From NCBI GenBank assembly GCA_040756075.1, contig JBFLZX010000001.1, forward strand, positions 28,787 through 92,786: a stretch of DNA of 64,000 nucleotides, read 5' to 3'. A program made the translations under genes and the position numbers. The notes beneath the pieces were generated by a model, which saw only the letters and a list, made by a program, of their open reading frames with translations, was not told where the DNA came from and made no database searches. This DNA comes from Patescibacteria group bacterium (lineage in GTDB: Bacteria; Patescibacteriota; JABMPQ01; JBFLZX01). Numbering within the stretch: the stretch's first letter is position 1; each line of letters begins with the position of its first letter. Shown here piece by piece: positions 20,422 through 62,787 of the stretch.

Positions 20422-20422
20422 T

Positions 20423-23055: not shown

Positions 23056-23081
23056 ATTATAAGACATAGAAAGGAGTGATT

Positions 23082-23531
23082 ATGCCTAAGATAACTAAGC
23101 CACAATTATTGAATATAGAATTTCATTGTGATGATAGGGGCTATCTAGTTCCTTTAACAAATAATTTGGATAGAACATTGCAAAAAAAGATAAAAAGAAC
23201 TTATGTAGTAGGAAACTTTAGTAAAGGAGTAATCAGGGGATTACATTTCCATAAAAAAGAAATTAAAATATTTTATATTGCCCGAGGTGCCGCAAAATTC
23301 GTAGCTATCAATCCTAAATTACCTAAAAAGGATTTTTATGCACATGTTCTTTCAGACAAAAAATCTGCTTTATTTATAATTCCTCCCGGATATGCTAACG
23401 GCTGGGTTTCTTTATCTGATAACACAATATTAATTTCTTTATCTACATCTACATTTCAGGAAAGTGTAAAAGATGACATAAGATTTTCTCCTTACGAATG
23501 GGGAGATATTTGGAATATAAGAGCCAGGTAA
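23082..23531 (+). CDS. Cupin-fold sugar-nucleotide 3,4-ketoisomerase or 3,5-epimerase (FdtA/WxcM-like or RmlC-like)
   Basis: A roughly 150 aa cupin. The N-terminal segment HCDDRGYLVPL resembles the RmlC/FdtA block, and IRGLHFH is a cupin His motif. It lies between an SDR and a DegT aminotransferase. Confidence 0.5.
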   Translation: MPKITKPQLLNIEFHCDDRGYLVPLTNNLDRTLQKKIKRTYVVGNFSKGVIRGLHFHKKEIKIFYIARGAAKFVAINPKLPKKDFYAHVLSDKKSALFIIPPGYANGWVSLSDNTILISLSTSTFQESVKDDIRFSPYEWGDIWNIRAR

Positions 23532-23534
23532 TAT

Positions 23535-24719
23535 ATGATAAATAAGAGAATAATTCCTTATGGAAAACAGTGGTTATTTAAAGAAGACATTAATTCAGTT
23601 GCTAATGTTTTAAGGTCCGATTGGATTACTCAGGGGCCTAAAATTAAAGCCTTTGAAGATGCAATTTGTAACTATTGTGGTTGTAAATATGCAGTAGTGG
23701 TTTCTTCCGGAACAGCCGCATTGCATATTGCCTGTTTGGCAGCAGGGCTTAAAAAAGGAGATCAGGCTATCACAACTCCGTTAACTTTTTTGGCTACAGC
23801 AAATTCTGTATTATACAGCGGGGCAGAAGTAATTTTTGCAGATATAGATTATGCTACCGGTAATATTGATACGAGACAGATTGAGAAAAAAATAACAAGA
23901 AAAACTAAAGTATTGTTGCCGGTAGATTTTGCAGGACTGCCTTGTGACTTATCAGAAATAAAAAAAATTGCAAAACGATATAAACTTTTGGTGATAGAAG
24001 ATTCTTGTCATGCTTTAGGCGCAACCTATAAAAATTCAAAGATAGGCGATTGTAATTATTCCGATATGACAATATTTAGTTTTCATCCTGTAAAACATAT
24101 TACAACAGGAGAAGGCGGGGCCATCACAACAAATTCTAAGAAGTTATATAATAGGCTTATTGCGCTAAGGAACCATGGGATGTGTAAGAAAGCGCAAACA
24201 TTAAAGAAAGAGGGTTCTTGGTATTACGAGATGAACTATCTTGGTTTTAATTATAGAATTACCGATTTACAATCTGTTTTAGGATTAAGTCAAATTAATA
24301 AATTACCTTTATTCATAAAGCGTAGAAATTTGATTGCCAATAGATATGACCAAGCATTCTTTTGTTTTAGAGATCTTCTAACTTTACCATCGATAAATTA
24401 TGGAGATAGAACACATGCTTGGCATTTGTATACGCTTAGATTAAACATGGCTAAAAAATATATTTCGCGTAGACAATTATTTGAATTGTTGCATAAAGAA
24501 GGAGTAAGAGTGCAAGTTCATTATATACCTATAACGCGGCAACCTTATTACCGAGAAAAAGGTTTTAAGAGCTCACTCTTTCCAAATGCTGAAAAATATT
24601 ATGAGAATGTTATTTCATTGCCAATCTATCCTAAAATGGACAATTCGGATATTGATTATGTTATAGGCGTTGTAAGCAAGATAATAGATAAATATTGTAG
24701 ACAAGGAGGCAGTAAGTGA
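23535..24719 (+). CDS. DegT/DnrJ/EryC1-family PLP-dependent sugar aminotransferase
   Basis: WITQGPKIKAFE, SSGTAALHIA and SFHPVKHITTGEGG are typical of this family. Confidence 0.75.
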   Translation: MINKRIIPYGKQWLFKEDINSVANVLRSDWITQGPKIKAFEDAICNYCGCKYAVVVSSGTAALHIACLAAGLKKGDQAITTPLTFLATANSVLYSGAEVIFADIDYATGNIDTRQIEKKITRKTKVLLPVDFAGLPCDLSEIKKIAKRYKLLVIEDSCHALGATYKNSKIGDCNYSDMTIFSFHPVKHITTGEGGAITTNSKKLYNRLIALRNHGMCKKAQTLKKEGSWYYEMNYLGFNYRITDLQSVLGLSQINKLPLFIKRRNLIANRYDQAFFCFRDLLTLPSINYGDRTHAWHLYTLRLNMAKKYISRRQLFELLHKEGVRVQVHYIPITRQPYYREKGFKSSLFPNAEKYYENVISLPIYPKMDNSDIDYVIGVVSKIIDKYCRQGGSK

Positions 24720-26185
24720 GGGTACTTTTAGCCTATCTTAGTGATACTGGCATAGGAGAAATACCCATAGGTTTATCTATAATTCAGGCTTGCTTGAGAC
24801 AGGCAGGGCATAGTACGTGCATCTTTGATACCACCTTTTTTAAACAAACTGATATAAGGAGTATTAATGAGAACTTGGGTGTGCATAAACCTGTTAACTT
24901 AGAAGATTATGGGGTAAGCCTTACTTATAGCGACATCGATGATGAGTTTTTATCTGTAGTAAAAAATTTTAATCCGGATCTTATAGGCTTTTTTACTACT
25001 AGTTACAATTTTTTTCAAGTATTAAATATGATTAAGTTGATTCGTCGGAATAATATAAATACTCAAGTAATACTAGGGGGTCCTCATACGACAGTTGCAC
25101 CCGAAGAGAGTATTAATTATCCGGAAATTGATATGCTTTGCGTGGGAGAAGGAGAAGAGGCAATTATCGAATTATGCAAGAAGATGCAAGTATCAAATAG
25201 GATCGATAATATAGAAAATATTTGGATTAAGCATGACGGCAGGGTCTACAGAAATCAACCAAGGCCTTTTATATGCATGGATAAGGTTCCCTGTCCTGAT
25301 GCAGATAGTTTTTCCGATATGCATTTTTTTAAACCTTTTTCAGGTAAAGTATATCGTATGGGGCATATAGAAATAAGCAGAGGTTGTCCTTTTAGTTGCA
25401 CATATTGCATTAATGCATATATGCGTAACTTGTATAAGGCTAAAAATGAAGGTAATTATCATCGTGAAAAGAGCATAGATAAAGCTATATCGGACATAAA
25501 AATATTGGTTAAGAGGCACAATCTTGAAATGTTGCGTTTCTGGGATGAAACTTTTTTATTTATGAAGGAGTCTAGATTGAATGAATTTAGTAAGAGATAT
25601 AAAAAAGATATTAATCTCCCTTTTATAATTTCAACACACCCGGCTACTATTAATGAGAAAAGAATAGGGATTATGAAGGATATGGGTTGTGTTGCTATTA
25701 GCGTTGGAATAGAGAGCGGAAACGACCGTATCCGTAGGGCGCTTTTAGGTCGTAAAATTAGCAACGAACAAATAATTAGAGCTTTTGATATTATTAAGTC
25801 ATCTGGAATAAGGGTTACTTCGTATAACATGATTGGCTTACCGTTTGAAACACGTAAAAATATCTTTGAGACCATAGACTTAAATCGAAGAGTTAAGGTG
25901 GATACAGCTGGCCCAAGTTTTTTTTATCCTTATCCGGGGACTAAATTAAGAGAAGTTTGTTTAGAGAGTAATTTTATAGATTCAGAGCTTAAACCAGCAG
26001 AGAATAATGTTGACACCATACTCAATATGCCACAAATTAAGCATAAGGAATTAAAAGGACTGCATAAGACTTTTACTCTTTATATAAAATCACCTAAATG
26101 GTTATTTCCTCTGATTAAGCTTTGCGAGTTAGATAACTATATATCTAATAGAATATTCAAGTTTTTAATCAGAAGATATTGCTAA
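24716..26185 (+). CDS. B12-binding radical SAM protein
   Basis: N-terminal B12-binding-like domain. Radical SAM motif SRGCPFSCTYCIN. Confidence 0.75.
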   Translation: MRVLLAYLSDTGIGEIPIGLSIIQACLRQAGHSTCIFDTTFFKQTDIRSINENLGVHKPVNLEDYGVSLTYSDIDDEFLSVVKNFNPDLIGFFTTSYNFFQVLNMIKLIRRNNINTQVILGGPHTTVAPEESINYPEIDMLCVGEGEEAIIELCKKMQVSNRIDNIENIWIKHDGRVYRNQPRPFICMDKVPCPDADSFSDMHFFKPFSGKVYRMGHIEISRGCPFSCTYCINAYMRNLYKAKNEGNYHREKSIDKAISDIKILVKRHNLEMLRFWDETFLFMKESRLNEFSKRYKKDINLPFIISTHPATINEKRIGIMKDMGCVAISVGIESGNDRIRRALLGRKISNEQIIRAFDIIKSSGIRVTSYNMIGLPFETRKNIFETIDLNRRVKVDTAGPSFFYPYPGTKLREVCLESNFIDSELKPAENNVDTILNMPQIKHKELKGLHKTFTLYIKSPKWLFPLIKLCELDNYISNRIFKFLIRRYC

Positions 26186-26201
26186 GAAGGGCGGGCATAA
26201 G

Positions 26202-27269
26202 ATGTTTAAATTTAACAAAACAGTAGAAATTGATGGCGTGAAAATTGGTAGCGGACAACCTTGTTACATAGTAGCTGATGTTAGCGCTAATCACAATTCA
26301 GATTTTAAAACTGCAAAAAGATTTATAAGGTTAGCCAAAGACATAGGTCTAAATGCAATTAAATTTCAAACATACACAGTTGAAAAGTATCTTTCAAAAA
26401 AAATTAAGCGGGAAGACGGATATCATTTTAATAAATCTTTTCAAAAAGCAAAGAAATATGAATTACCTTATGAATGGCATCAAGAATTATTTGATTATGC
26501 TAAGGATTTAGGGGTTACAATTTTTTCTACTATTGATGATATCGATACCATTGATTTTTTAAATAAATTAAATACGCCAGCCTTTAAGGTGTCTTCTCCC
26601 GATTTAAATTTTTTACCAATGATAGAAGAGGCTGCCAAGACTCTTAAGCCACTTATTTTATCAACAGGCATAGGAGATATATCTAGAATTAAAGAGGCAA
26701 TTGAATCGGTAGCTTCCTACGGGAATGATCAGTTGATACTATTGCATTGTGTTTCTATGTACCCCTCGCATTTTTCGGAAATGAATATTCGCTGCATAAC
26801 TAACTTACAGGATACTTTTGGTCTACCTGTAGGGTTATCTGACCATACAGCGGCCAGCCAAGATCCTTATTCTGTAGCTTTGGGAGCTGTGGCTTTGGGT
26901 GCAAATATGATAGAAAAACATATTACATTTAGCAGATCCCAAGATGGCCCGGATCACATATTTTCTATGGAACCCGATGAATTTTCCAAATTAGTTACTT
27001 ATATAAGGAATCTTGAAGAATCGTTGGGTAATGGAAGGAAGTGTCCTGTCTCCAGAGAAATTAAAGTGAGCATAGAGATAACAAAGAGTATCCATACAAC
27101 AAGAGATATAAGAGCTGGAGAAATAATCAAGGAGTCAGATCTGAGAATATTAAGACCAGGTTACGGAATTGAACCTAAATATCTAGGAGATGTTATAGGT
27201 ATGAAAGCAAAAGTTGATATAAAAGATTCAGAGGCGCTAGAGTGGAATTTATTAGAGAAAAATAAATAA
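26202..27269 (+). CDS. Nonulosonic acid synthase (NeuB/PseI/LegI/SpsE family), PEP-dependent
   Basis: The NeuB-family N-terminal barrel (GSGQPCYIVADVSANHN...AIKFQTY) is followed by a C-terminal SAF/antifreeze-like domain. Confidence 0.75.
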   Translation: MFKFNKTVEIDGVKIGSGQPCYIVADVSANHNSDFKTAKRFIRLAKDIGLNAIKFQTYTVEKYLSKKIKREDGYHFNKSFQKAKKYELPYEWHQELFDYAKDLGVTIFSTIDDIDTIDFLNKLNTPAFKVSSPDLNFLPMIEEAAKTLKPLILSTGIGDISRIKEAIESVASYGNDQLILLHCVSMYPSHFSEMNIRCITNLQDTFGLPVGLSDHTAASQDPYSVALGAVALGANMIEKHITFSRSQDGPDHIFSMEPDEFSKLVTYIRNLEESLGNGRKCPVSREIKVSIEITKSIHTTRDIRAGEIIKESDLRILRPGYGIEPKYLGDVIGMKAKVDIKDSEALEWNLLEKNK

Positions 27270-28060
27270 TGAATATTAAAGTAAATAGAATAGGCTGTAT
27301 TATTCAAGCACGAATGAATTCACATAGGCTTTTTGGTAAGGTATTGGTAAAAATTTGCGGGAAATCTATATTAGAGCACATTATTGAACGAATAAAAGAA
27401 TCGAAATATATTCAAGAAATTATTATTGCAACTTCTTCTTCTGGTATAAATGACCCAATAAGAGACCTCGGCAATAAAATTAATATACCTGTTTTTAGCG
27501 GCAGCGAGGACGATGTATTAAGTAGATATATAGAGGTTAGTAAAACATATAATTTTAGAATTATAGTTCGGGTTACAGCGGATGATCCGCTTATTGACAT
27601 ACAAGAAGCGGATAAGATGATAAAAATACTTGAAGAAAAAAAGCTAGACTATGTAACAAATTCAGATATCAGCTTGGATGATTATAATACAGAACTTCCA
27701 GCCGGGTTCCAGGTGGAAGTTTTATCCAGCGATGCTCTATTAAGCTTGGAAGATAAAGATCTGACACAATTGCACAGAGAACATGTAACTCTTTATATCG
27801 AGCAATACGCAGAGAAATATAATATTAGATTTATTAAACCGCGAGAGAACATACGTTACAAGGGATTACGTTTAACAGTAGATACGCCAGAAGATCTAGG
27901 ATTAATGAATAAGATATACCTTGAGTTATATAAAGGTAGGCCTATTCTTAATGAAAAAGTTGTAGAGTTAATTAAAAAGAATCCTAGCTTATCTTTATTA
28001 AACAGTTCTATAAAAACAAATTACAGTTATTTAGACGGAATAAGGGTTAAAAAATTATGA
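27269..28060 (+). CDS. Cytidylyltransferase, SpsF/PseF-like (CMP-nonulosonic acid synthetase family)
   Basis: GCIIQARMNSHRLFGKVL in a GT-A-like nucleotidyltransferase fold. It is the classic SpsE-SpsF neighbour of the NeuB-like gene. Confidence 0.6.
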   Translation: MNIKVNRIGCIIQARMNSHRLFGKVLVKICGKSILEHIIERIKESKYIQEIIIATSSSGINDPIRDLGNKINIPVFSGSEDDVLSRYIEVSKTYNFRIIVRVTADDPLIDIQEADKMIKILEEKKLDYVTNSDISLDDYNTELPAGFQVEVLSSDALLSLEDKDLTQLHREHVTLYIEQYAEKYNIRFIKPRENIRYKGLRLTVDTPEDLGLMNKIYLELYKGRPILNEKVVELIKKNPSLSLLNSSIKTNYSYLDGIRVKKL

Positions 28061-29508
28061 TCGATTGTCTTCTGATATATCCTAATCCTACAAAGGATAG
28101 TCCTAAAAAAGGCGTAGCTTTAGGTATCTTTTACTGCGGAGCAATGCTTGAGAAGAGCGGTCTTAGTGTAGAGTATTTTGATTCGCGTTTTGATAGTAAT
28201 GAAAAATTGAGAAAAATTATTGATCGCAGAGTGCTATGTGTCGGAATATCTTCTATGACCGGTAATCAACTAAGAGAAGCAAAAGAGTTTCTTAAATTTA
28301 TAAAGAATGAGGATGCATCTATTTTTACTATAATGGGCGGTGTTCATCCTTCAATTTTACCTCTTGAGACATTAAGTGATGAATTAGTTGATTTTGTAGT
28401 AATCGGAGAGGGAGAGTTTGTTTTAGTAGATTTGATTCGTCAACTAAAAGGCGATAGACGATTATCGGAAGTCGAAAGTCTTTGTTGGAAAGATGGCAGA
28501 AAATTAATTAAGAATAAAAGGGCTCCATTTATAGATTTAAAAGATTTACCATCCCCATTAACTAAGAAGACAGAAAAGTATTATGTTATATCTGCAAAGA
28601 CAAATAATTTAATTCATCCAACAAGCAGATCTTGTCCGGGTTTTTGCGGGTTTTGTTATAACACTGTAGTTAATAAGAGTCAATGGCGTTCTATGCCTGT
28701 TATGAAATGGGCAAAAGAGTTTAACGAAATGGTAAATTTAGCAAGGTTCTCCCATATGTTTACCGGCGATGATAATATTGGTAGAGATAAAGAGCGTATT
28801 AAAGAAATAGGAGATGTATTTATGGCCAGAGGTGTTACCTGGCATACGAATATTAGACCAGAATATTTAGATGAGGAGTTGATAGGGATCCTAGAGAGGG
28901 GTGGGTGTACTAGTTTGTTATTAGGTTATGAATCTGGTTGTAATAGGATATTGAATACAATAATAAAAAAAGGTTTACCTAATGGTGTTTTAGATTTACG
29001 AAGATGTGCCGAACTCATTGGTAGAAGTAAAATTAATGCGCTATATAGCTTTATGAGCAATCTTCCTACCGAAACCTGGGGTGAATTAAAGGAAAGTATG
29101 GATTTAGCAGATTATATAAAAAAAGTGGATAAAAAATGCAGAATTAGTTTTTATGTTTATGGTCCATATCCCGGTACGCCGATGTATCATATGGCTTTAA
29201 GGCAAGGCTTTAGAGAGCCTAGAAGTATAGAAGAGTGGGGAACTATTTGTTTGACTTACGCCGCAAATGCCTTAGTTGAAAATTTGCATTATATAGCTTC
29301 ATTAAATTTTAGGGGAGGCAAAGGCGATAATACTTCTATTAATTTTCCCGGTTTAAAAAGATTACTTTTATTGCCTTTTGAGTTATCGGCAAAATTAAGA
29401 TGGAAATTAAGATTTTTTAGGCTGTTCAATCTAGAAAAACGAATCGTAAAATACCTTTTTGGCTGGGCAGCAGCACGTATAGATAGATTGCATAAATATA
29501 ATATTTAA
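28057..29508 (+). CDS. B12-binding radical SAM protein
   Basis: N-terminal B12-binding-like domain. Radical SAM motif SRSCPGFCGFCYN. Confidence 0.7.
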   Translation: MIDCLLIYPNPTKDSPKKGVALGIFYCGAMLEKSGLSVEYFDSRFDSNEKLRKIIDRRVLCVGISSMTGNQLREAKEFLKFIKNEDASIFTIMGGVHPSILPLETLSDELVDFVVIGEGEFVLVDLIRQLKGDRRLSEVESLCWKDGRKLIKNKRAPFIDLKDLPSPLTKKTEKYYVISAKTNNLIHPTSRSCPGFCGFCYNTVVNKSQWRSMPVMKWAKEFNEMVNLARFSHMFTGDDNIGRDKERIKEIGDVFMARGVTWHTNIRPEYLDEELIGILERGGCTSLLLGYESGCNRILNTIIKKGLPNGVLDLRRCAELIGRSKINALYSFMSNLPTETWGELKESMDLADYIKKVDKKCRISFYVYGPYPGTPMYHMALRQGFREPRSIEEWGTICLTYAANALVENLHYIASLNFRGGKGDNTSINFPGLKRLLLLPFELSAKLRWKLRFFRLFNLEKRIVKYLFGWAAARIDRLHKYNI

Positions 29509-29515
29509 TATAAAA

Positions 29516-31051
29516 ATGACAAATACAGTTTTAGTCAGAGTAGATAGTAACTATCATGTAGGTATGGGGCATATTATGAGATGTGTTGCTTTAGCGCATG
29601 AGTTCAAACGGAGAGGAATAAAGCCTACTTTTCTAATTAAGAATTATAAAGAAGCTAAATTTATTCTAGATAAAAATTCTATGGATTATCTTTGTTTACC
29701 TAAAATAATCAGTATGGAAAAAGAAGTAGAATTTATTAATCAGTCTGCCAAAGATGCTAATACTAGAATCTTAGCAATAGATTTGAAAAAAATACCAGCT
29801 TTATACATTCAAGCTTTAAAAAATAAAGGATTTTTTCTTATATGTTTTTCTGATTTTGAAAAAATAAGGAAGAGCGCCGCGGACCTTATAATAGCCGGAG
29901 AATCTTATTATAAAAATAAAGAGGAAGGCATAGTTCGTGGTTTAGATTATATAATCACCGGAAGAACATCAATAAGATATAATAAGCGAAAAAAAATAAT
30001 TAATAAGGTTAAAAGGATTCTTTTAAGTTTTGGCGGGGGAGATAATGGCGGGGTATTTATAAAGGTCTTAAGGGCCTTAGAGAAATCTAGACATAGATTA
30101 GAATTCAATTTAATTGTTGGCGCAACATTTAAACGCCATTCTTTGCTAAAAAAAATTATTAATAAGACAAAATTAAATTTAAATATTATTGAAAATACTA
30201 ATTCAATGGCTAAATATTTATATAATACGGATGTTGCTTTTATATCTGGAGGGGCAACAAAATATGAAGCTGCGTGCATAGGGACACCATCTTTTATCAT
30301 AGCACAAGATAACAGGCAGTTTAAATATTCAAGAAGGTTTTCTGAATTGACAAAGGCAGCTATATGTTTAGGTAGGCATAATAAATTGAAAGTTAGGAAT
30401 ATTCATAAACAGGTCGACCCCCTTTTTTGTAATAAACAATTACTTAGAAAGATGAGTGATGCCGGTAAGCTTAGCGTCGATGGATTAGGTGCTAGGCGAA
30501 TAGTAGATAGGATATTATATTTACAATCTAAAATATTATATCCAAGCATCTCTCTGCGATTGGCGACAAGAAAAGACCTGCCATTATTATTGAAGTGGTT
30601 CAATGATCCAGAGTTAAGGCAATTTTCTATTACTTCCAAGAAAATAACATTAACTCAACATAGAAAATGGTTTACTAGTTTAAATAAAAGAAAAAATAAA
30701 ATATTTGCCGTTGATTTGAATGGGCAACATATAGGCACAGCGGCATTAAGGAATATTGACTCAAAAAATAGACAGGCTGAGTTAGCTATAGAGATAGGTG
30801 AAAAAGAGTATTGGGGTAAAGGTTACGGTACATTAATCATAAAACAACTTTTAGAATACGGATTCAATAAGCTTAATTTAAGATCGGTTTACCTTTCAGT
30901 TTTTTCCAAAAACAACAGAGCGGTTAATTTATATAAGAAGATCGGTTTTAGTCTTAATCAAAGTGAAAAAAAAATTATAAATAAAGACGGTAAGCGCATA
31001 GAGCTATCTCGAATGAATTTGGACAATAAAGAATATTTTAGGCGGAAATGA
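29516..31051 (+). CDS. PseG-like UDP-sugar hydrolase (GT-B fold) fused to a GNAT N-acetyltransferase (PseH-like)
   Basis: N-terminus: VRVDSNYHVGMGHIMRCVALAHEF, which matches the PseG G-x-G-H-x-x-R signature. C-terminal roughly 170 aa: GNAT fold (ATRKDLPLLLKWFNDPELRQF ... YWGKGYG). Confidence 0.65.
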   Translation: MTNTVLVRVDSNYHVGMGHIMRCVALAHEFKRRGIKPTFLIKNYKEAKFILDKNSMDYLCLPKIISMEKEVEFINQSAKDANTRILAIDLKKIPALYIQALKNKGFFLICFSDFEKIRKSAADLIIAGESYYKNKEEGIVRGLDYIITGRTSIRYNKRKKIINKVKRILLSFGGGDNGGVFIKVLRALEKSRHRLEFNLIVGATFKRHSLLKKIINKTKLNLNIIENTNSMAKYLYNTDVAFISGGATKYEAACIGTPSFIIAQDNRQFKYSRRFSELTKAAICLGRHNKLKVRNIHKQVDPLFCNKQLLRKMSDAGKLSVDGLGARRIVDRILYLQSKILYPSISLRLATRKDLPLLLKWFNDPELRQFSITSKKITLTQHRKWFTSLNKRKNKIFAVDLNGQHIGTAALRNIDSKNRQAELAIEIGEKEYWGKGYGTLIIKQLLEYGFNKLNLRSVYLSVFSKNNRAVNLYKKIGFSLNQSEKKIINKDGKRIELSRMNLDNKEYFRRK

Positions 31052-31785: not shown

Positions 31786-31795
31786 GGAGAAACCG

Positions 31796-32488: not shown

Positions 32489-32491
32489 TAA

Positions 32492-34330: not shown

Positions 34331-34344
34331 CGCAGGGGGGCGTT

Positions 34345-35127: not shown

Positions 35128-35153
35128 AAATAGCTTAATAGGTAAGGATCTTT

Positions 35154-36098: not shown

Positions 36099-36105
36099 TT
36101 TTGTT

Positions 36106-37608: not shown

Positions 37609-37669
37609 TTTTTATCCAGTTGTTGAAATATTAAGAATAATAATAGTGTTTGGAAAGGAGTTTTGGATT

Positions 37670-38395: not shown

Positions 38396-38420
38396 ACGAA
38401 ACCACATCGAAGGAGAAAAA

Positions 38421-39176: not shown

Positions 39177-39185
39177 AAGGAGAAA

Positions 39186-39968: not shown

Positions 39969-39972
39969 CTAT

Positions 39973-41478: not shown

Positions 41479-41479
41479 G

Positions 41480-43702: not shown

Positions 43703-43708
43703 CATATT

Positions 43709-46728: not shown

Positions 46729-46740
46729 AAGGGGATAAAA

Positions 46741-49425: not shown

Positions 49426-49427
49426 TT

Positions 49428-50879: not shown

Positions 50880-50888
50880 CTTAAGAAT

Positions 50889-53505: not shown

Positions 53506-53506
53506 A

Positions 53507-54130: not shown

Positions 54131-55071
54131 TGAACAGGAAACGATTGCTTCAGGTATTATTTATTACTATTATAACAGTGATGTTTATTATTTATTTCAG
54201 GAGAAATTATTCACATTTGAAAGATGTGATAAAGATAAAGCCGCATTTTTTAATTTGGTTGGTTCTATTAAATATTACAAACAAGATTTTGGGAGGTTTT
54301 AAAATAAGAACAGCCCTGGAGATATTTAAAATAAGGCTTTCTTTTATGCAGTGGTTTGGAGCTTCAGTTATTAATAATTTTTATAACTATCTTGCGCCTA
54401 AATCCGGTAGTGCGCTTTTAGCGGTTTATTTCAAAAATAATCATAAACTTGAGTACAACAAATATTTAAGCACCCTTGTAGTTATGGCTATGATTACTAT
54501 ATTAACTTTGGGTATAATAGGCTTTGTCACAAGTCTATATGCTTATAAAAACTATATTATAACAAGTTCTTTATTTATCTTAATTTTTATAGCCATGATT
54601 ACTCTGCCGCTTATTTTATTGATTATGCCGCGGATTTACTTTAATAAAAAGGGATTTTTTGAAAAAATAAATAGGTTTCTAGTAGGTTGGCATACCCTAC
54701 GCAAAAATAAAAAGATGATAGCATTGCTCTTTTTATCAGATGTAGGTATTTTAATGTCATTAGCCTTTCGTTACTATATTATGTTTAAAATGTTTTCATT
54801 AAATACCAACCTAATTAGCTGTATTCTTATAGCGCCATTTAACATCTTAATGCATTTTGCAACAATAGTACCTGGTGGCTATGGGATTAAAGAAGCAATT
54901 GTAGGCTTTGTATCCAAATTAACTAATATTGGTTTTGACGGAGGAGTTATATCAACATTAAGCGATAGGATAATAAATATGACAGTATCATTTATATTGG
55001 GGCCGCTATTTAGCTTTATTTTATTTAAGCGCATTTTTATACCTAAAAAGGAGATAGTAAAAAATGAATAA
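54130..55071 (+). CDS. Flippase-like integral membrane protein (UPF0104/LPG-synthase-TM-like)
   Basis: About 8 TM helices. The KIKPHFLIWLVLLNITNK start is typical of the flippase-like domain proteins that accompany GT2/GT-C pairs. Confidence 0.5.
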   Translation: MNRKRLLQVLFITIITVMFIIYFRRNYSHLKDVIKIKPHFLIWLVLLNITNKILGGFKIRTALEIFKIRLSFMQWFGASVINNFYNYLAPKSGSALLAVYFKNNHKLEYNKYLSTLVVMAMITILTLGIIGFVTSLYAYKNYIITSSLFILIFIAMITLPLILLIMPRIYFNKKGFFEKINRFLVGWHTLRKNKKMIALLFLSDVGILMSLAFRYYIMFKMFSLNTNLISCILIAPFNILMHFATIVPGGYGIKEAIVGFVSKLTNIGFDGGVISTLSDRIINMTVSFILGPLFSFILFKRIFIPKKEIVKNE

Positions 55072-56632
55072 ATATAAATCTTGCGCTTTGTTGATTTTGT
55101 TATTTTTTATGTCTTTTTATTCTTTATTTGGTATTGGGCATTTTGGCGGAGATGGTTACCAGGATTATTTAACTGCTGAAAGTATTGTTTTAGATCATAA
55201 TTTATCGCTAAACGATAGGCCAGAGGATATAGATGAATTACAATACATTAAAAGTTTTGGTATCAAGGGTACAGATAATAAAGTTTATAGTTCGCGCACG
55301 GGCTTAGGAGTGCCTATTATACTTGTTATATTTTATTTTTTTGGGCATGTTGCTTCTTTTTTATTTAAAGATTTACCGCATGATTTCATAACTATGTTTT
55401 TCGTTTCATTCGCTAATCCAGTTATCTGCGCATTATGTTGTTTTTTTGTGTTTGTCATCGCTAAGAAACTTAAATTTTCTTTACAAATATCGGCTATATT
55501 AGCGTTCATTTATGGCCTTTCTACTATGTTGCCTGTTTATGCAAGAACAGCATTTAACGAACCTGCTATAGGGCTATTTTTGCTTATTTCAATATATTTT
55601 ATATTAGACTATAAAAGCTCTTTAAATGTTCGTTGCTTAATTTTATCGGGATTGGCAATGGCATATTCATTTTTTATAAAACCGAGTAGTTTAATTTTTT
55701 TAGTTGCTTTATTGCCATATATTATGTGGATTAGTTTTGATTTAAAAATTAATAGTTTAAATAAAATAAAGCATTTTTTCTTTTATGTCGTTTCTCTATT
55801 AGTGCCGGTAATCTTAATCTGTATTTACAACCAGATTATCTATGGAGATTACCTAAAATTTGGCGGACAAGAAGCTTTTAAATTAGGAAAGCGCATTATG
55901 GGGTCAACACATCTATTAAAAGGATTTTATTATTATATGTTTAGTACGGGGAAAAGTTTTATTCTATTTAATATACCAATTGTTTTAGCATTTATCGGCG
56001 CATATAAAGCTTGGCAAGAAAGAAAAAAAGAAACGGTTTTATTCTTGTTAATATTTTTTGTTAATCTTTTATTCTTTGTTAAGTTTTTTAGGCGGGGATC
56101 ACTTTTTAGTTGGGGGCCACGTTATTTGCTGCCATCTTTGCCATTCTTAATATTTTTTATTGGGGATTATTGTCAAAATTATAGAAAGCTTATTTCAAAA
56201 GTAGCCCTATTTGTTTTATCTGTTATTGGTTTTTTGATTATGCTACCATGCTTATTTATAAATCAATCAAAATTTTATTTTTTTATCATTGAAAAGTTAA
56301 GGCTGGATGAATATATGATTAATTTTATCCCTGATTTGTCGCCGATACTTGGGGCATGGAATATGTTAATATCGAGAATTTATTTAAATTTAAAAGGGAT
56401 AGACATTCCCTTTATTTATAACCCGGATTATCGCCTTGTTAACCCTATATCAGCTAGCATGCTTGATTACAATAATTTTGATTTTTGGTTTTTGAAGATA
56501 ATCAAATATAAAACGGATTATAACTTTATTATTTCTTTATTAGTTTTATCTTTAGTTAGTTTAATATTATTATCAAGTAGTATTATTATAAAAATTTTGA
56601 TAAATAAAAATAATTCTCTAGATAATTATTAA
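55064..56632 (+). CDS. Polytopic membrane glycosyltransferase, GT-C fold (ArnT/PMT-like)
   Basis: At least 12 TM helices, with an acidic first loop (GDGYQDYLTAESIVLDHNL..DRPEDIDEL). Confidence 0.5.
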   Translation: MNKYKSCALLILLFFMSFYSLFGIGHFGGDGYQDYLTAESIVLDHNLSLNDRPEDIDELQYIKSFGIKGTDNKVYSSRTGLGVPIILVIFYFFGHVASFLFKDLPHDFITMFFVSFANPVICALCCFFVFVIAKKLKFSLQISAILAFIYGLSTMLPVYARTAFNEPAIGLFLLISIYFILDYKSSLNVRCLILSGLAMAYSFFIKPSSLIFLVALLPYIMWISFDLKINSLNKIKHFFFYVVSLLVPVILICIYNQIIYGDYLKFGGQEAFKLGKRIMGSTHLLKGFYYYMFSTGKSFILFNIPIVLAFIGAYKAWQERKKETVLFLLIFFVNLLFFVKFFRRGSLFSWGPRYLLPSLPFLIFFIGDYCQNYRKLISKVALFVLSVIGFLIMLPCLFINQSKFYFFIIEKLRLDEYMINFIPDLSPILGAWNMLISRIYLNLKGIDIPFIYNPDYRLVNPISASMLDYNNFDFWFLKIIKYKTDYNFIISLLVLSLVSLILLSSSIIIKILINKNNSLDNY

Positions 56633-56637
56633 ATGCA

Positions 56638-57585
56638 ATGGATATACATATAATTATATTAAATTATAACGGAATGGCTCTTTTAAAAAAACATCTACCA
56701 TCTGTAATCATGGCTCATAATCGTTGTTCATATAAAAGCCGCATAACTATTTTAGATAATGGGAGTACAGATGGGAGTTTGTTATATGTAAGAGAAAATT
56801 TTCCCGAAGTGAACATAAGTATTTCTCCAAAAAATTTAGTTTTAATTTCATACAACGCATTTATTCAACAAATAAAAGAAAAAGTTATATTATTGTTAAA
56901 TAATGATGTTAGGTTGTCGGAAGATTGTATTGATTTAATGATGCCACATTTTTTAGATAGTTCTGTTTTTTTTGTTTCTCCGCTTGTTTTGAATAAAGAT
57001 GGAAATGACTTAAACGGAGGCTGTATGGATTTTTCATTTAAATATGGATTATTTCAGAATAAATTCAAGCAGCCGACAGTTAATAAATATTCCTTATTTA
57101 TTGGGAGTAGCGTTGCTTTTGATAGGGATAAATTTCTGGCTTTAAGTGGATACGATTCTATTTATTTACCTGGCACTTACGAAGATGTAGATATATGCTA
57201 TAGGGCTTGGCAAAGGGGATGGTTTGGCATCTGTGAAAAAAAAGCAATCGCTTATCATGACGATTCGGCTTCGTTTAATAAGGAATACGGCAATAAAAAA
57301 CGCCAAATAATATCAGCTAGGAATGCTTATATATTTGTTTGGAAAAACATACACAGCCCCACGATACTCTGTACAAATATTATTTGTTATCCATTAGTAA
57401 TAATATTTAATATGATGCGTTTACGGTTTGATTTGGTTTTAGGTTACCTACAGGCCATTTTTTTATTACCTGCTATTTTTAAAAGAAGGATATTTTGTAA
57501 TAGGCAGATTAAAAGGACGGATTCAGAGATTAAACAACTTTTTAATAGCACATCAGGAGATAAAAATGTATATACTTGGAATTAA
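56638..57585 (+). CDS. GT2-family glycosyltransferase
   Basis: IIILNYNGMALLKKHLPSV, ILDNGSTDGS and a later YEDVDI block (DxD-like). Confidence 0.65.
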   Translation: MDIHIIILNYNGMALLKKHLPSVIMAHNRCSYKSRITILDNGSTDGSLLYVRENFPEVNISISPKNLVLISYNAFIQQIKEKVILLLNNDVRLSEDCIDLMMPHFLDSSVFFVSPLVLNKDGNDLNGGCMDFSFKYGLFQNKFKQPTVNKYSLFIGSSVAFDRDKFLALSGYDSIYLPGTYEDVDICYRAWQRGWFGICEKKAIAYHDDSASFNKEYGNKKRQIISARNAYIFVWKNIHSPTILCTNIICYPLVIIFNMMRLRFDLVLGYLQAIFLLPAIFKRRIFCNRQIKRTDSEIKQLFNSTSGDKNVYTWN

Positions 57586-59242
57586 TTGCGGACACGATGC
57601 AACAGCAGCCCTTATAAAAAATGAAAAAATTATAGCTGTTGTTCAGGAAGAAAGAAAAACGCGCATCAAACATCAAAATGGATTTCCCTTCTTAGCCATA
57701 AAAGAAGTATTATATATCGGTGGAATCGAAGCTAAGGATATAGATTATATTGCTTGGGCAGGAAATGATAGGCGGCTTCAATCAATAAAAGAGTTGTTTT
57801 GGGCAATAGGAGGAGATAAGTTTTATTCATATGGAGGAATAACTAAAAGGATTAAAACGGCTATAGCCGAAAATACAAAAGGAATATGGAATTTCAACGG
57901 CAATCTTAAGAAATTAAAATTAAACAAAAAGAAATCTTTCTTTTTTGAACATCATCTTTGTCATGCGTCATCGGCATACCGTAATTCGGGTTTTCAGAAA
58001 GCCCTAATTTTGACAATCGATGGCGTAGGAGATAATATTTCCGCTACAGTAAATATTGGAGATAAAGGTCTGATTAAAAGAATAGCAAAGACTAGCCCGA
58101 AACACAGTATCGGGTTGCTTTATCAAGCAGTAACCGAGGCATTAGGGTTTGTTCCTGTCGAAGGCGAATATAAAACTATGGGCCTTGCAGCTTATGGCGA
58201 TAAAATTAAACTCTACAACTATTTTAATAATATAATAAGCTATGAGAATTTAAGGTTTAAATCAAAATTTATATGGGAATCTAATTGGCAATTTCCTGCT
58301 CCTAGCATACGCCAACATATTTTATTCAAGAATTTACTCAAACAGTACAAAAAAGAAGATATAGCAGCGAGTTGTCAGGCTGTTTGCGAAGATGTAATTT
58401 ATAGATTTGTGAATGATGTTGTTAAGAAAACAGATATTCATAATATATGTGTTGCCGGCGGAGTTTTTCTTAATGTTAAAGCAAACAAAATAATTAGGGA
58501 AAAAGTCCCTCTAGATTCTTTATATATTCATCCGGATGCTGGCGATGGAGGTTTAGCTTTAGGGGCGGCTTTAGAATTATATTTTAACTTAACGGGCTCT
58601 ATGCCTAGAGACAAATTAGATAACACTTATTTTGGCAGGAGTTATGCTAATGAAGAAATAAAGAAAGAATTAGATAGAAATAATCTAAAGGTATATTATT
58701 TTGAAGATATTGAAAAAAAAGCAGCAGAATTATTAAAATCAGGAAAAGTCATAGGCTGGTTTCAGGGGAGAATGGAAATGGGCCCACGCGCCTTAGGTAA
58801 TAGGTCTGTTTTAGCAGATCCTCGTAATCCATCGGTGAAAGAAAAAATCAACAAACATCTTAAAAAACGCGATTGGTTTGTGCCATTTGCACCCTCAATT
58901 TTAGAGGAAGATAGCAATCTTTATATTAAGGAATTTAATGGGTATGCTCCTTTTATGATTATGGCGTTTGATGCTGACGTTACTAAAAAAGAGTTAATAC
59001 CAGCAGTTGTGCATGTTGATAATACGTTAAGGCCGCAGATCGTAAGAAAAGAATTCAATCTTTCGTACTGGAAGTTGATAAAGTCGTTTAAAGAGCTTAC
59101 TGGCATTGGCGTTGTATTGAATACCTCATTTAATAGGCATGGTTTACCGATGGTAGAATCTCCCAAGGATGCAGTGGAGCACTTATTGGACCGTAATATT
59201 GATACCCTAGTTATTGGGAATTATATCGTTGACAGGCCTTAA
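57566..59242 (+). CDS. Carbamoyltransferase (NodU/CmcH family)
   Basis: YILGINCGHDATAALIKNEKIIAVVQEERKTRIKH matches the family's N-terminal signature. The C-terminal domain has the usual FPFAPS and NTSFN blocks. Confidence 0.75.
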   Translation: MYILGINCGHDATAALIKNEKIIAVVQEERKTRIKHQNGFPFLAIKEVLYIGGIEAKDIDYIAWAGNDRRLQSIKELFWAIGGDKFYSYGGITKRIKTAIAENTKGIWNFNGNLKKLKLNKKKSFFFEHHLCHASSAYRNSGFQKALILTIDGVGDNISATVNIGDKGLIKRIAKTSPKHSIGLLYQAVTEALGFVPVEGEYKTMGLAAYGDKIKLYNYFNNIISYENLRFKSKFIWESNWQFPAPSIRQHILFKNLLKQYKKEDIAASCQAVCEDVIYRFVNDVVKKTDIHNICVAGGVFLNVKANKIIREKVPLDSLYIHPDAGDGGLALGAALELYFNLTGSMPRDKLDNTYFGRSYANEEIKKELDRNNLKVYYFEDIEKKAAELLKSGKVIGWFQGRMEMGPRALGNRSVLADPRNPSVKEKINKHLKKRDWFVPFAPSILEEDSNLYIKEFNGYAPFMIMAFDADVTKKELIPAVVHVDNTLRPQIVRKEFNLSYWKLIKSFKELTGIGVVLNTSFNRHGLPMVESPKDAVEHLLDRNIDTLVIGNYIVDRP

Positions 59243-59259
59243 AAATAAAGCATGTATTA

Positions 59260-60267
59260 ATGAAAAGAAAAAGTATTTTAAAAAGATTTGGTTCACAAGA
59301 ATTAGCAGTATGTGAGCAAGTTGCAGAAAAGCCATTTATAGAGCTGCAAGGCAATAATATTATGCCTCTACCAAAAGACTTTTTTTGTCTTAGAATTGAT
59401 GCAGATGAGCATAATGAAGAATTATTCGATGAATTTTTGAGTGTCTTTGATAACTTTAAAGATGCCATAACAATTTTTTTTAATGCACATAATTTTTCTT
59501 CTCTAAAAGATAAAATTATTAAATGCGCTAATTCAGGATTAGATGTTCAATCTCATGGGTATTACCACTATACTTATAATGACTACAGAAGCAATCGATA
59601 TAATATAAATAAAGCAAAGCGGTTTTTCGAAGAGTTAGGAATTACGACTATTGGATTTGCTGCTCCTATGGGGAAATGGAATGAGAGTTTAATGTATGCC
59701 TTGGAAGATGAGGGCTATGAATATTCCTCGGACTTTAGTTATGATTATTTAGGCTTTCCGACTTATCCTAATTTAGGAAATAGAGTATCTAGTATCCTTG
59801 AAATTCCAATTTTTCCTGTTGCGCCAGAGTTATTTTTTCAAAATAATAATTTTAACTCAAGGAGAATCTTAGAATTTTATGAAAATGCTATTAAAGAAAT
59901 AAGTTCTTGTGGGCTACCGGTAATAATTTATGCTCATACAAGTAATTATAATGAAATACCTAAACTTTTAAACAGCATATTAGAATTTGCTATTCTAAAA
60001 AATAAACTAACTCCTATTAATCTAACAAATTTTTATAATTTATGGAAAAAAATTCATCCGCAGAAAATACAGATGACCAGTAGGGCGGATAAAATAAAAA
60101 TACCAAATTCAGATCTTTTAGGAGAAACGATAAACTTAGAGATAAATAGTTTTTTAAAAAACTATTTTAAAAACTTGATTGATTTTGAACGGATTACTCC
60201 CTTAGATGAAATTCAATACGGATGGTTTAAAAAAACGATAAACAAAGTATTAAGAAATTTTTTATAA
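59260..60267 (+). CDS. Putative polysaccharide deacetylase-like (NodB homology) protein
   Basis: LRIDADEH (a TFDDG-like motif 1), QSHGYYH (an H-x3-H motif 2) and FAAPMGKWN (an RPPYG-like motif). The match is weak. Confidence 0.4.
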   Translation: MKRKSILKRFGSQELAVCEQVAEKPFIELQGNNIMPLPKDFFCLRIDADEHNEELFDEFLSVFDNFKDAITIFFNAHNFSSLKDKIIKCANSGLDVQSHGYYHYTYNDYRSNRYNINKAKRFFEELGITTIGFAAPMGKWNESLMYALEDEGYEYSSDFSYDYLGFPTYPNLGNRVSSILEIPIFPVAPELFFQNNNFNSRRILEFYENAIKEISSCGLPVIIYAHTSNYNEIPKLLNSILEFAILKNKLTPINLTNFYNLWKKIHPQKIQMTSRADKIKIPNSDLLGETINLEINSFLKNYFKNLIDFERITPLDEIQYGWFKKTINKVLRNFL

Positions 60268-60286
60268 TATTATAAACGGAGGAGTT

Positions 60287-61252
60287 ATGCCTAATTTTTA
60301 TAATAAAAAAAGAGTTTTAATAACCGGTGCTGATGGTTTTATGGGCTCTCATCTTGTAGAGCGGTTACTTGCTGAAGGCGCAAAAGTATCGGTTTATGTG
60401 AGGGGAAATTCTGTCTCTGGGACAACCCAATATAACCTTAAGAATATAAAGCACTTAGAGAGGTATTTGTCTGAAATAATCACTGGTAATATTGCTACTT
60501 TAGATGCAAAAGATCTTGTAATTAAAAATAAGCCAGAAGTTATATTTCATCTTGCGGCTGATGCGTATGTGCCAAACTCATTTGACCATCCGATTGAGGT
60601 AATGGAAACAAATGTTATTGGTACATTGAATATGTTATGCGCTGTTAAAGAAGACAAGAAAATTAAACGCATTGTTTGTACTTCATCTAGTGAAATTTAT
60701 GGCATGACTTTAGGTGGTTCGATTAATGAAGAACATCCACTTTATCCATCAAGCCCCTATGCAGCAAGTAAGGTTGCTGCAGATAGATATGCCTACGCAT
60801 ATTGGAATACCTATAAGCTACCTATTGCGATTATCCGGCCATTTAATACATATGGCCCACGCCACACCTACGATGTAATACCAAAATTTATTGATTTAGC
60901 GCTAAAGAATAGAGCCATAACTGTGCATGGGAGCGGTAGTCAGTCTCGTGATTTTACATATGTCGATGATATGATAGATGCCTTTTTGATTATGGGCAGC
61001 CACGATAAAGCAATTGGCAAGGCAGTAAATTTTGGCACAGGACGCGCGGTAACTATAAATTATATTGCAAAAAAAATAAAGGACATAGCTAAATCAAACT
61101 CAAGAATAGTTCATACAGAACAAAGGCTTGCAGAGGTGCCTAAGCTTTTGTGTAATTATTCATTGGCTAATAAATTATTTGGATGGAAGCCAAAAATTTT
61201 TATTGATGAAGGGTTAAGGAGAAATGTCGAATGGGCAAAACAAAGCCAATAG
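60287..61252 (+). CDS. NAD-dependent sugar-nucleotide epimerase/dehydratase (UDP-glucuronate decarboxylase / 4-epimerase-like extended SDR)
   Basis: [18 protein letters not shown] and YAASK. GGAGG RBS. Confidence 0.7.
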
Positions 61253-62787
61253 AAAAATATTTCCGTGATAAAAATGCTTTAATTTCTAAAACCGCCAAAA
61301 TAGGTGCAGGCACTAAAATTTGGGCGTTTGCGCAAATTGGAGATAATGCGCGAATTGGCAATAATTGTGTTATAGGAAATGGTGTTTATATCGATAGAAA
61401 TGTTGTAGTTGGCAATAATGTAAAAATTCATAATAGGGCATTGCTTTACGATGGCTTAGTTGTTGAAGATAACTGCTTTATTGGCCCTGGTGCATGTTTT
61501 ACAAATGATAAGCTGCCAAGACACAATACAACACGTAATTTAGCAGATAAAACTTGGCGAGTGAGAGAAGGGGCAAGCATTGGTGCAAATGCAACAGTGC
61601 TGCCAGATATAACAATTGGGAAAAATGCTGTTATTGGTGCGGGCTCAGTAGTTACAAAAGATGTGCCTGATAATGCGACTGTTTATGGAAATCCCTCTAA
61701 AATAATTAAAATCCATAAAAATAACCAAGTAAGTTCAGGAGAAAGTTTAAAATTAGTTTGCAATTGGATTATAAATTCTGGCCTGCAGGCAAAAAATGGT
61801 GGTTTTTACGCGTGGCTTGACCTAAATGCAAATGCATATTCGTATATTTATTCAGAAATAACCGGCTATGGTATTACGACTCTGCTTTTTTTGAATGAAC
61901 TAAAAAAAGCAGAATTAGCCGCTGATTGGATTATTAAAAAATCAATACAGCCTTGTGGGGGGGTTAGAACAGGTAAGGGTGAGTTTGATAATTTATTTAC
62001 CTTTGATACTGGAATGGTCTTGTATGGCTTAATAAATTTATTTAAAGCCGCTAAAAAGCAAGAATATCTTAATATCTCAAAAAAAATTGCTGATTTTTTA
62101 TTAGCGAATCAGAGAAGTAATGGTTCACTTGCCCCGATTTATTCGTTAAAAACAAATAAAACAATTGAAACACTTGATAAATGGTCAACTCAAAGTGGTA
62201 CATATCATGCAAAAGTAGCTTTAGGGTTAGTCGATCTATTTAGAATTACAAAAAACGATATTTACAAAAATGCGGCAATAAAGCTCTGTAAATTTACCTT
62301 AACTTTGCAAGATAAATCAGGCAGGTTCATCACAAATAAAAAAGATAATACCACTCATATTCATCCGCATTCTTATGCGGCAGAAGGTTTACTATACACC
62401 GGGGCAATTTTAAAAATTAAAGAATTTGTCGCTGCGGCAAAAAAATCTGTTGAGTGGTCATTTAAAAATTTATCCGGTTATGGTATAAATGAGCTTTATA
62501 ATCCGTTTTCGAATACTTTTAATGATTTTCAAAGAAGCGATATCCTCGCGCAAGTATTAAGATTGGGAATTATCTTTTCTTTAGATTCAAAAAAAATAGA
62601 AGAATTGGCATCTTTATTACTTGCTTATCAATATAATGGCCAAAATAAGCAGAAAGGCGGCTTTTTTTATTCAAAGAATGACTTACACTTAAATTCTTGG
62701 TGCTCAATGTTTGCTTTACAAGCATTAGCGCTATACCAAAATAAAAAATTAATCGGCAAAAATGGCAAAGTTGAACTGTTTATCTGA
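61231..62787 (+). CDS. Hexapeptide-repeat (LbH) acyl/acetyltransferase fused to a C-terminal alpha/alpha-toroid domain that carries GGF-type repeats
   Basis: N-terminal roughly 170 aa: [54 protein letters not shown], which is FdtC/WxcM-like. C-terminal roughly 340 aa: recurring NGGFYAW, CGGVRT, SGRF and KGGFFYS repeats like those of prenyltransferase/terpene-cyclase beta repeats. Confidence 0.55.

Follow-up and report, generated by a model that had tools for sequence, protein, structure and literature searches.

An N-acetyltransferase fused to an uncharacterised six-hairpin domain in a widespread sugar-nucleotide gene cassette of a Patescibacteria group bacterium

A 64,000-nucleotide stretch of a Patescibacteria contig (JBFLZX010000001.1; hereafter the window) contains an open reading frame (ORF) at position 61231 whose product joins a left-handed β-helix (LbH) N-acetyltransferase domain to an α/α-toroid. 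Which pathway does this protein belong to, and what does the toroid do? An earlier note on this DNA proposed that the LbH domain serves as FdtC in a dispersed 3-acetamido-3,6-dideoxyhexose (Fdt) pathway, whose cupin and DegT aminotransferase lie about 38 kb away beside a short-chain dehydrogenase/reductase (SDR), and suggested that the toroid could bind a lipid or glycan acceptor or process a glycan. All of these genes are present, on the plus strand (Table 1), the cupin starting at 23076. Our analysis showed that the pathway hypothesis is wrong, yet the domain pairing it pointed out proved to be an entry to an uncharacterised enzyme family of considerable size.

We consider it very likely that ORF 61231-62787 unites, in a true fusion, two genes that are neighbours in a conserved, horizontally widespread sugar-nucleotide cassette. 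In an Omnitrophota locus (L003) the two halves are separate genes, the toroid gene following the LbH gene with overlapping stop and start; residues 1-160 of the fusion share 68% identity with the separate LbH protein and residues 179-518 share 52% with the toroid protein, with an 18-residue linker between the two halves. An ATGA-type overlap couples the separate genes in L003, L006 and L008. The same fusion occurs in independent assemblies (P0002-P0005 and P0065; 35-72% identity), one of them from an Aenigmatarchaeota archaeon, and the 518-aa protein itself is 100% identical to an NCBI protein (P0001) of a Patescibacteria metagenome-assembled genome. A frameshift at about 61,750, raised in the earlier note as a possible artefact, was rejected: the ORF is intact by comparison with the L003 genes, both halves are complete and collinear with their free-standing counterparts, and the fusion recurs in independent assemblies. 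The window has a GC content of about 31%, and all of its 55 genuine ORFs that reach 150 aa lie on a single strand.

The LbH half is an ordinary member of the class-II sugar N-acetyltransferases (QdtC/WlbB/FdtD). Membership would predict acetyl-CoA-dependent acetylation of an NDP-3-amino sugar, although the cassette has no conserved aminotransferase nearby to provide such a substrate. Hexapeptide repeats span residues 14-165, and the best solved relatives are 3-amino-sugar N-acetyltransferases of this same type: the Helicobacter pullorum enzyme 7s43 (5e-35), FdtD (4mzu; 1e-34), WlbB (3mqg; 1e-31) and QdtC (3fs8; 8e-20), with 49% identity to both 7s43 and 4mzu. These matches bear out the FdtC/QdtC/WxcM-like character given to the domain earlier. 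It begins at about residue 14, without an N-terminal Rossmann-like or nucleotide-binding domain, and keeps the FTNDK-PR motif. FdtD of Shewanella denitrificans, a bifunctional N-acetyltransferase/3,4-ketoisomerase, likewise joins an N-terminal class-II LbH domain to a C-terminal sugar-modifying domain; however, the latter is a cupin of about 130 aa, whereas the window protein carries a 340-aa (α/α)6 toroid. The pairing of acyltransferase and toroid is indeed unusual and uncharacterised.

An AlphaFold2 model of residues 170-518, built with a 91-sequence alignment as input, gave twelve helices arranged as six hairpins with high predicted accuracy (local score, pLDDT, 97; global score, pTM, 0.94). 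The hairpin motifs GGF, GGV, NGS, SGRF and GGF fall at residues 190, 243, 297, 364 and 476; the model and the motif positions confirmed a fused toroid of about 340 aa with GGF-type repeats. Conserved across the family are Y207, E209, T211, Y213, D259, K328, H378, Y382, E385, D437, Q441, R444 and W490, which lie in the motifs Y207-S-E209-x-T-G-Y213, F258-D259, H378-P-x-x-Y382-x-x-E385 and D437-x-x-x-Q441-x-x-R444 or, for K328 and W490, singly. Six-hairpin active sites usually sit at the N-termini of the inner helices, and polar residues at the N-termini of all six were kept in at least 90% of 77 toroid sequences, down to about 25% identity. Carboxylates, one histidine and Lys/Arg residues suggest that the toroid uses acid/base catalysis on a sugar substrate that is polar or anionic (phosphate-bearing), and we infer that it is an enzyme, working by acid/base chemistry without a cofactor, rather than an acceptor-binding module. 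A role as acceptor binder or glycan processor is disfavoured both by this enzyme-like centre and by the fusions to cytoplasmic sugar enzymes described below.

The structures closest to the model were sugar 2-epimerases of the AGE superfamily (N-acyl-D-glucosamine 2-epimerase, cellobiose and glucose 2-epimerases, mannose isomerase and the sulfoquinovose isomerase YihS), which share the (α/α)6 barrel at 8-14% identity. The window protein had no Pfam match to the AGE family (PF07221), and hhalign of the toroid against Escherichia coli YihS gave a probability of 7.6% over 31 columns. H378 stands at the start of helix 8 in 75 of the 77 sequences; helix 12 begins N-S-W-C without a histidine (the register being taken from helix order, with no superposition), so that the second catalytic histidine of AGE enzymes seems absent. 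Unlike the toroid, AGE enzymes stand alone, act on free sugars and are not fused to sugar-nucleotide enzymes. The sole Pfam family above its gathering score for the toroid was glycoside hydrolase family 88 (GH88; PF07470, 31.8 bits against a cut-off of 26.6), although only profile positions 24-123 of 352 were matched. GH88/GH105 enzymes are unsaturated glucuronyl hydrolases whose vinyl-ether hydration chemistry could in principle apply to 2-acetamidoglucal; GH88 is catabolic, however, and its catalytic Asp pair has no established counterpart in the toroid. Against the E. coli GH8 enzyme BcsZ, hhalign gave a probability of 0.1%, and a profile search of the PDB with the toroid alignment returned repeat-level matches alone (GH76, GH88 and cellobiose 2-epimerase). 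Placement of the toroid in GH8 or AGE by sequence was therefore rejected.

The likeness to prenyltransferase and terpene-cyclase subunits suggested earlier held for the generic fold but not for the sequence. Squalene-hopene cyclase matched below its threshold (20.7 bits; cut-off, 26.1) at residues 144-199, that is, the LbH C-terminus and linker outside the toroid body; the prenyltransferase/terpene-cyclase repeats PF00432 and PF13243/PF13249 gave no match above threshold in the window protein, and AGE-type 2-epimerases are closer in structure. The earlier note had also allowed that the domain might prove homologous to a well-known unrelated enzyme; in the profile and structure checks no characterised family claimed it by sequence. 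Our literature search found no characterised toroid homologue and no 2-acetamidoglucal hydratase. The toroid forms a new family of six-hairpin proteins, for which there is neither a Pfam or NCBIfam model nor a solved structure nor any characterised member, and we know of no six-hairpin domain described within a sugar-nucleotide biosynthetic enzyme.

Scanning the GTDB species genomes for peptide patterns of the toroid yielded 80 loci, which were compared by tblastn synteny and neighbour clustering. The bacterial loci belong to Omnitrophota, Planctomycetota (including the anammox genus Scalindua), Margulisiibacteriota, Uhrbacteria (candidate phyla radiation), Elusimicrobia, Chloroflexota, Deltaproteobacteria, Caldisericia and one actinomycete, Actinokineospora guangxiensis (L085), which is the sole cultured carrier in the set, and the archaeal loci to DPANN lineages (Aenigmatarchaeota, Woesearchaeota, Iainarchaeota and Nanoarchaeota), Bathyarchaeia and Nitrososphaeria. 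Their shared order is SDR (about 1.5 kb upstream of the toroid), group transferase, toroid, Epimerase_2 (about 1.1 kb downstream) and then usually a family 4 glycosyltransferase (GT4). The epimerase adjoins the toroid in 51 of the 70 loci with enough flanking DNA and lies within 10 kb in 62 of them, and the SDR is upstream in 48 of 75 loci. Eleven loci have toroid and epimerase without the SDR; the SDR without the epimerase was found in one. Directly upstream of the toroid there is an LbH gene in 35 loci, an ArnA/Fmt-like formyltransferase in nine and an S-adenosylmethionine (SAM)-dependent methyltransferase in three, besides the fused forms. The formyltransferase of these relatives matches ArnA at 5e-35, and FolD and serine hydroxymethyltransferase (SHMT) genes adjoin the formyl versions. 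A DegT gene occurs from 4 kb upstream to 5 kb downstream of the toroid in 4 of 48 loci, all archaeal or actinomycete; among the 80 loci neither DegT nor a cupin is conserved as a neighbour.

The SDR and the epimerase are ordinary members of their families. The SDR scored 249 bits against the LegB family (TIGR04180), below the cut-off of 475, and its best PDB match was Pal (6bwl; 4e-51). Its motifs [13 protein letters not shown] and RPFNTYGPR are invariant in 51 cassette SDRs, and its S-S-E motif is compatible with GMD/LegB-type dehydratases as well as with UXS/ArnA-type decarboxylases. The epimerase, which ranks as the toroid's obligate partner, is of the non-hydrolysing WecB type (NeuC model, 76 bits alone) and matches 4neq of Methanocaldococcus jannaschii at 2e-117. 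In its gene logic (SDR, N-acyltransferase, Epimerase_2) the cassette resembles LegB-LegC-LegH-LegG, which makes the legionaminic-acid precursor; however, the LegC/ArnB aminotransferase is absent and the toroid occupies its position, the Leg epimerase is of the hydrolysing LegG/NeuC type, and the NeuB-type synthase of the legionaminic-acid route is missing. Likeness to the Arn (L-Ara4N) pathway lies in the ArnA-like formyltransferase of relatives and in neighbours of carbohydrate esterase family 4 (CE4), GT2 and GT-C. The Fdt, Qdt and Wlb pathways each have a clustered aminotransferase, which the toroid cassette lacks. The cassette probably builds a surface-glycan sugar. A speculative link to the terminal 5-O-methyl-hexos-5-ulose of Methanococcus maripaludis, whose structure has been confirmed (PMC2952790), by way of hydration and then a methyl cap, was considered but not adopted.

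A search of 1.84 billion representative proteins, clustered at 50% identity, placed 373 clusters in the toroid family at E <= 1e-30 and 1,160 at E <= 1e-10; fusions were scored in the best 150 representatives and in the 80 loci. At least 11 of the best 150 representatives are, by length, epimerase-toroid fusions (754-869 aa, toroid C-terminal). Pfam confirmed this architecture in L060, L074 and P0198; P0133 has the reverse order. The toroid is also fused to formyltransferase and to methyltransferase; to a C-terminal sugar-phosphate nucleotidyltransferase (P0210, P0233 and P0234, and P0253 by sequence similarity alone); and to a transketolase/DXS-like thiamine pyrophosphate (TPP) enzyme (P0165 and P0258), including an epimerase-TPP enzyme-toroid architecture. 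P0136 combines nucleotidyltransferase (NTP_transferase), methyltransferase, toroid and epimerase in 2,211 aa. Since all the fusion partners are cytoplasmic sugar or sugar-nucleotide enzymes, the toroid is part of sugar-nucleotide metabolism rather than an exported hydrolase of glycans or a module that binds lipids.

These relatives include mega-enzymes, P0136, P0165 (1946 aa) and P0133 (1369 aa), that string a whole pathway together and share a conserved C-terminal region of about 290 aa. A divergent toroid subfamily (P0218, P0223, P0234, P0233, P0210 and P0253) is fused to NTP_transferase and a long C-terminal region with an HD-like motif, and some of its members carry an N-terminal TIR or PNP_UDP_1 domain matching PADLOC defence-effector models; this subfamily may represent a defence-type architecture on a sugar-nucleotide module. 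The 518-aa window protein itself had no defence match in PADLOC.

As a whole, the explanation we favour, a fusion within the cassette with toroid chemistry at C1/C2, stands at about an even chance of being right. Its specific part, that the toroid carries out C1/C2 chemistry on the 2-acetamido sugar handled by the WecB-type epimerase, is tentative. The toroid would work on the same UDP-N-acetylhexosamine-derived sugar as the 2-epimerase, and would protonate or hydrate it at C1/C2, either by hydrating a 2-acetamidoglucal intermediate or by hydrolysing the UDP-sugar in GH88-like chemistry; alternatively, it might epimerise the released sugar at C2 as AGE enzymes do. The fused LbH domain would acetylate the same sugar in a neighbouring step, and the fusion would channel intermediates. 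We propose C1/C2 chemistry because the toroid is coupled, genomically and physically, to the epimerase rather than to the SDR; because the WecB-type epimerase, the one enzyme known to form 2-acetamidoglucal, produces the kind of vinyl ether that GH88-type enzymes hydrate; because AGE-type enzymes set the C2 stereochemistry of N-acylhexosamines; and because the nucleotidyltransferase and TPP-enzyme fusions fit a free or phosphorylated reducing sugar as the product.

Several observations weigh against this proposal. The epimerase is WecB-type rather than NeuC-type and is usually followed by GT4, which implies that the end product is still a nucleoside diphosphate (NDP)-sugar and not a free sugar, and among the 80 loci neither an anomeric kinase nor a NeuB-type synthase is conserved beside the cassette. 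The LbH domain has 3-amino-sugar N-acetyltransferases as its nearest relatives and a formyltransferase as its alternative, and either type implies an acceptor amine that C1/C2 chemistry does not supply. Moreover, the second AGE catalytic histidine appears to be replaced in helix 12 (read from helix register alone), and hhalign found no sequence-level match of the toroid to YihS or BcsZ. The key unexplained point is that the acetyl-, formyl- and methyltransferase slots imply an amine acceptor, yet no aminotransferase is conserved.

A broader and more speculative suggestion is that the toroid family forms a new six-hairpin class of sugar-nucleotide-pathway enzyme, acting either in hydration or hydrolysis of 2-acetamidoglucal or UDP-ManNAc or in an amine supply that does not use pyridoxal phosphate (PLP). 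If the first version is true, the WecB-type epimerase and the toroid would form a two-protein "hydrolysing epimerase", and nucleotidyltransferases would re-activate its product or TPP enzymes would extend it. In the other version, the toroid would replace the aminotransferase of every known amino-sugar pathway, and the amine would be capped by the fused transferase. The cassette is conserved across many uncultivated phyla around a central enzyme without a model, structure or assigned reaction. Working out that reaction would extend sugar-nucleotide biosynthesis by a new type of reaction, would explain N-acylated and N-methylated sugars made without a dedicated aminotransferase, and would correct the annotation of a family that databases mislabel as GH88 or GH76 "glycoside hydrolase".

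Among the alternatives, an FdtD-like pathway is unlikely but is the main rival. In such a scheme the SDR would make an NDP-4-keto-6-deoxy-N-acetylhexosamine and the toroid would be a non-cupin 3,4-ketoisomerase or a C3/C5 epimerase using AGE-like enediol chemistry; an aminotransferase encoded elsewhere would aminate C3, the LbH domain or formyltransferase would N-acylate the amine, and the 2-epimerase would finish the sugar. FdtD is itself an LbH-isomerase fusion related to the window LbH at the identity given above, the folds nearest to the toroid are sugar isomerases and epimerases, and the SDR precedes the toroid in most loci. Acetyl/formyl alternation is also known for 3-amino sugars, through the N-acetyl- and N-formyltransferases of the Qdt and Fdt pathways. 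However, DegT is a near neighbour in only the 4 of 48 loci noted above, and the toroid tracks the 2-epimerase and not the SDR, which is missing from 11 loci and from many epimerase-toroid fusions. To our knowledge, free reducing sugars, and not NDP-4-keto sugars, are the substrates of all known enzymes of the AGE superfamily.

It is improbable that the toroid instead makes the amine for the adjacent transferase, whether by de-N-acetylating UDP-ManNAc or UDP-GlcNAc or by PLP-independent amination of the SDR product. Such a role would explain the absence of a conserved aminotransferase and would suit a toroid-adjacent or fused slot that alternates among acetyl-, formyl- and methyltransferase, with FolD and SHMT beside the formyl versions; a metal site might be built from an H-x-H-P-H motif together with conserved E, D and C residues. 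Yet no (α/α)6 amidase or aminating enzyme is known, deacetylation followed by re-acetylation would be futile in the commonest (LbH) version, many loci already have a CE4 deacetylase, and any cofactor or metal site of the toroid is hypothetical.

Still less probable is a conventional glycoside hydrolase or lyase (GH88-, GH76- or GH8-like) that trims or recycles the polymer of the cluster, or a non-catalytic scaffold. Weak Pfam matches to GH88, GH76, GH127 and pectate lyase, database names such as "GH88 family protein", and a by-eye resemblance of the motifs [13 protein letters not shown] and RSDILAQ to TSEGQSYG, SDGDV and SYDAIRV of the GH8 enzyme BcsZ point in that direction, but the Pfam matches are partial and near threshold and the BcsZ comparison failed in hhalign. 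GH8 and GH88 enzymes of biosynthetic operons are exported, whereas the toroid protein has no signal peptide and its fusions are always to cytoplasmic sugar-nucleotide enzymes.

The dispersed Fdt pathway depends on the genes near 23 kb, and these belong to a pseudaminic-acid (Pse)-type operon (Table 1). The DegT at 23535 is a PseC equivalog, that is, a C4 aminotransferase (TIGR03588, 501 bits; cut-off, 423.5), so that the C3 aminotransferase of FdtB/QdtB type is missing, although residues 14-165 of the 61231 product do supply an LbH domain of FdtC/QdtC type. The operon has its own N-acetyltransferase because it carries PseH (93.8 bits against 93.1) in the C-terminal half of the 29516 product. 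PseI and PseG scored 318.5 and 126 bits against cut-offs of 340 and 153.6; PseF scored 26.5 against 205.7, its place being taken by a KdsB-like CTP_transf_3. No PseB-type dehydratase was recognised in the operon (49 bits against 408), for which the CBS-SDR protein and the cupin may substitute; the cupin may supply the C5 inversion. The cupin scored higher as RmlC (PF00908, 50.3 bits; PDB, 1e-8) than as FdtA (PF05523, 35.5 bits; PDB match to QdtA, 3e-6). The window has two DegT genes alone, each with its own GNAT nearby; the second forms a fusion with an SDR (9889-12069) and belongs to a third module, which has GNAT, GT2 and GT-C genes of its own. We are highly confident that the toroid cassette is independent of the Pse-type operon, with nothing linking the 61231 LbH domain to the 23-kb genes. 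The earlier reading is accordingly very improbable: the LbH domain is FdtC/QdtC-like, the cupin passes the FdtA threshold of 23 bits and has an H-x-H-K motif, and all the genes lie within one 64-kb single-strand glycan cluster, but the DegT is PseC beside its own PseH, the cupin scores better as RmlC, the self-contained LbH-toroid cassette recurs in 80 loci from two domains of life without a conserved cupin or DegT partner, and the toroid has an enzyme-like conserved centre and exists as a standalone cytoplasmic protein. The glycan supercluster is a set of independent modules, in which similar parts 38 kb apart need not cooperate.

Table 1. Coordinates of the fusion gene, its cassette, the upstream block and the Pse-type operon in the window
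Feature	Position	Strand	Basis
LbH N-acetyltransferase/six-hairpin (α/α)6 toroid fusion, 518 aa	61231..62787	+	ORF list, Pfam, PDB profile matches, AlphaFold2
LbH (hexapeptide-repeat) domain, residues ~14-165, QdtC/WlbB/FdtD type	61270..61725	+	PF00132, 93.8 bits; PDB matches
Six-hairpin (α/α)6 toroid, residues ~179-518	61765..62784	+	AlphaFold2 model, alignment
Extended SDR, 321 aa, first cassette gene	60287..61252	+	PF16363, 214 bits
WecB-type (non-hydrolysing) UDP-GlcNAc 2-epimerase	62762..63898	+	TIGR00236, 363 bits (cut-off, 210)
Polysaccharide deacetylase (CE4/ArnD-like)	59260..60267	+	PF01522, 40.5 bits
NodU/CmcH-type carbamoyltransferase	57566..59242	+	PF02543, PF16861
B12-radical SAM, GT4, RtcB, thymidylate-kinase-like, LPG_synthase_TM, PMT-like GT-C, GT2	49428..57585	+	Pfam
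Pse-type operon	21574..31051	+	Pfam, TIGR models
CBS domain + SDR	21574-23055	+	ORF list
Cupin, 151 aa	23076-23531	+	ORF list; 23082, given in the earlier note, is an internal ATG
DegT aminotransferase, PseC	23535-24719	+	TIGR03588
B12-radical SAM genes (24716, 28057); PseI-like (26202); cytidylyltransferase (27269); PseG + PseH fusion	29516-31051 (fusion)	+	

The cassette is part of a longer conserved block. From the upstream block through the epimerase, window positions 49.4-63.9 kb are collinear with Omnitrophota and Planctomycetota loci (L003/L004 and L008), the full shared order being B12-radical SAM, GT4, RtcB, thymidylate-kinase-like, LPG_synthase_TM, PMT-like GT-C, GT2, carbamoyl- or formyltransferase, CE4 deacetylase, SDR, LbH, toroid and epimerase. 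By tblastn, the GT-C and RtcB proteins have matches of 53-61% identity in L010 and L030. Homologues of the deacetylase lie upstream of the SDR in 18 loci; the carbamoyltransferase-deacetylase pair recurs in L006 and L007, and in L003 and L008 a formyltransferase fills the carbamoyltransferase slot, these being Omnitrophota and Planctomycetota loci. Compared with the Arn pathway, the 49-64 kb block contains GT2, GT-C, CE4 and SDR genes but no DegT that could act as an ArnB-type aminotransferase.

Within this block, at 52015-54130, GT4 and the flippase-like LPG_synthase_TM enclose an RtcB-family gene (RNA 3'-phosphate ligase; 281 bits) and a gene for a thymidylate-kinase-like P-loop protein, an order shared by Patescibacteria, Omnitrophota and Planctomycetota (L003, L004, L008, L010 and L030). 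It is pure speculation that RtcB chemistry, the transfer of a nucleoside monophosphate to a phosphate, could in principle yield an NDP-sugar. The window has five B12-binding radical SAM genes (2031, 24716, 28057, 39973 and 49428), and homologues flank many other toroid cassettes.

The remaining modules of the window have peculiarities of their own. In the Pse-type operon, the CBS domain at the SDR N-terminus (21574-23055) and the joining of a PseG-like hydrolase to a PseH GNAT (29516-31051) are unusual fusions, and directly 3' of the operon (31048-32488) are genes for a WbqC-like protein (240 bits) and a PIG-L/BshB-like deacetylase. At 9889-17000, the gene for the SDR-DegT fusion (726 aa) precedes, in this order, those for a PMT_2 GT-C, a GT2, a GNAT and another PMT_2. 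Together they resemble an Arn-like module that would handle a lipid-linked amino sugar, set apart from the Pse-type operon and from the toroid cassette. A sulfation set at 17165-21385 comprises a fusion of a sulfatase-like domain with adenylylsulfate (APS) kinase (717 aa), a sulfate adenylyltransferase and a pyruvate-kinase-like protein of 325 aa without the C-terminal part (241 bits; cut-off, 432). Finally, two CTP_transf_3 cytidylyltransferases flank an HpcH/HpaI-type aldolase at 37646-39968; this trio may form a second route to ulosonic acids, based on the aldolase, alongside the Pse-type operon.

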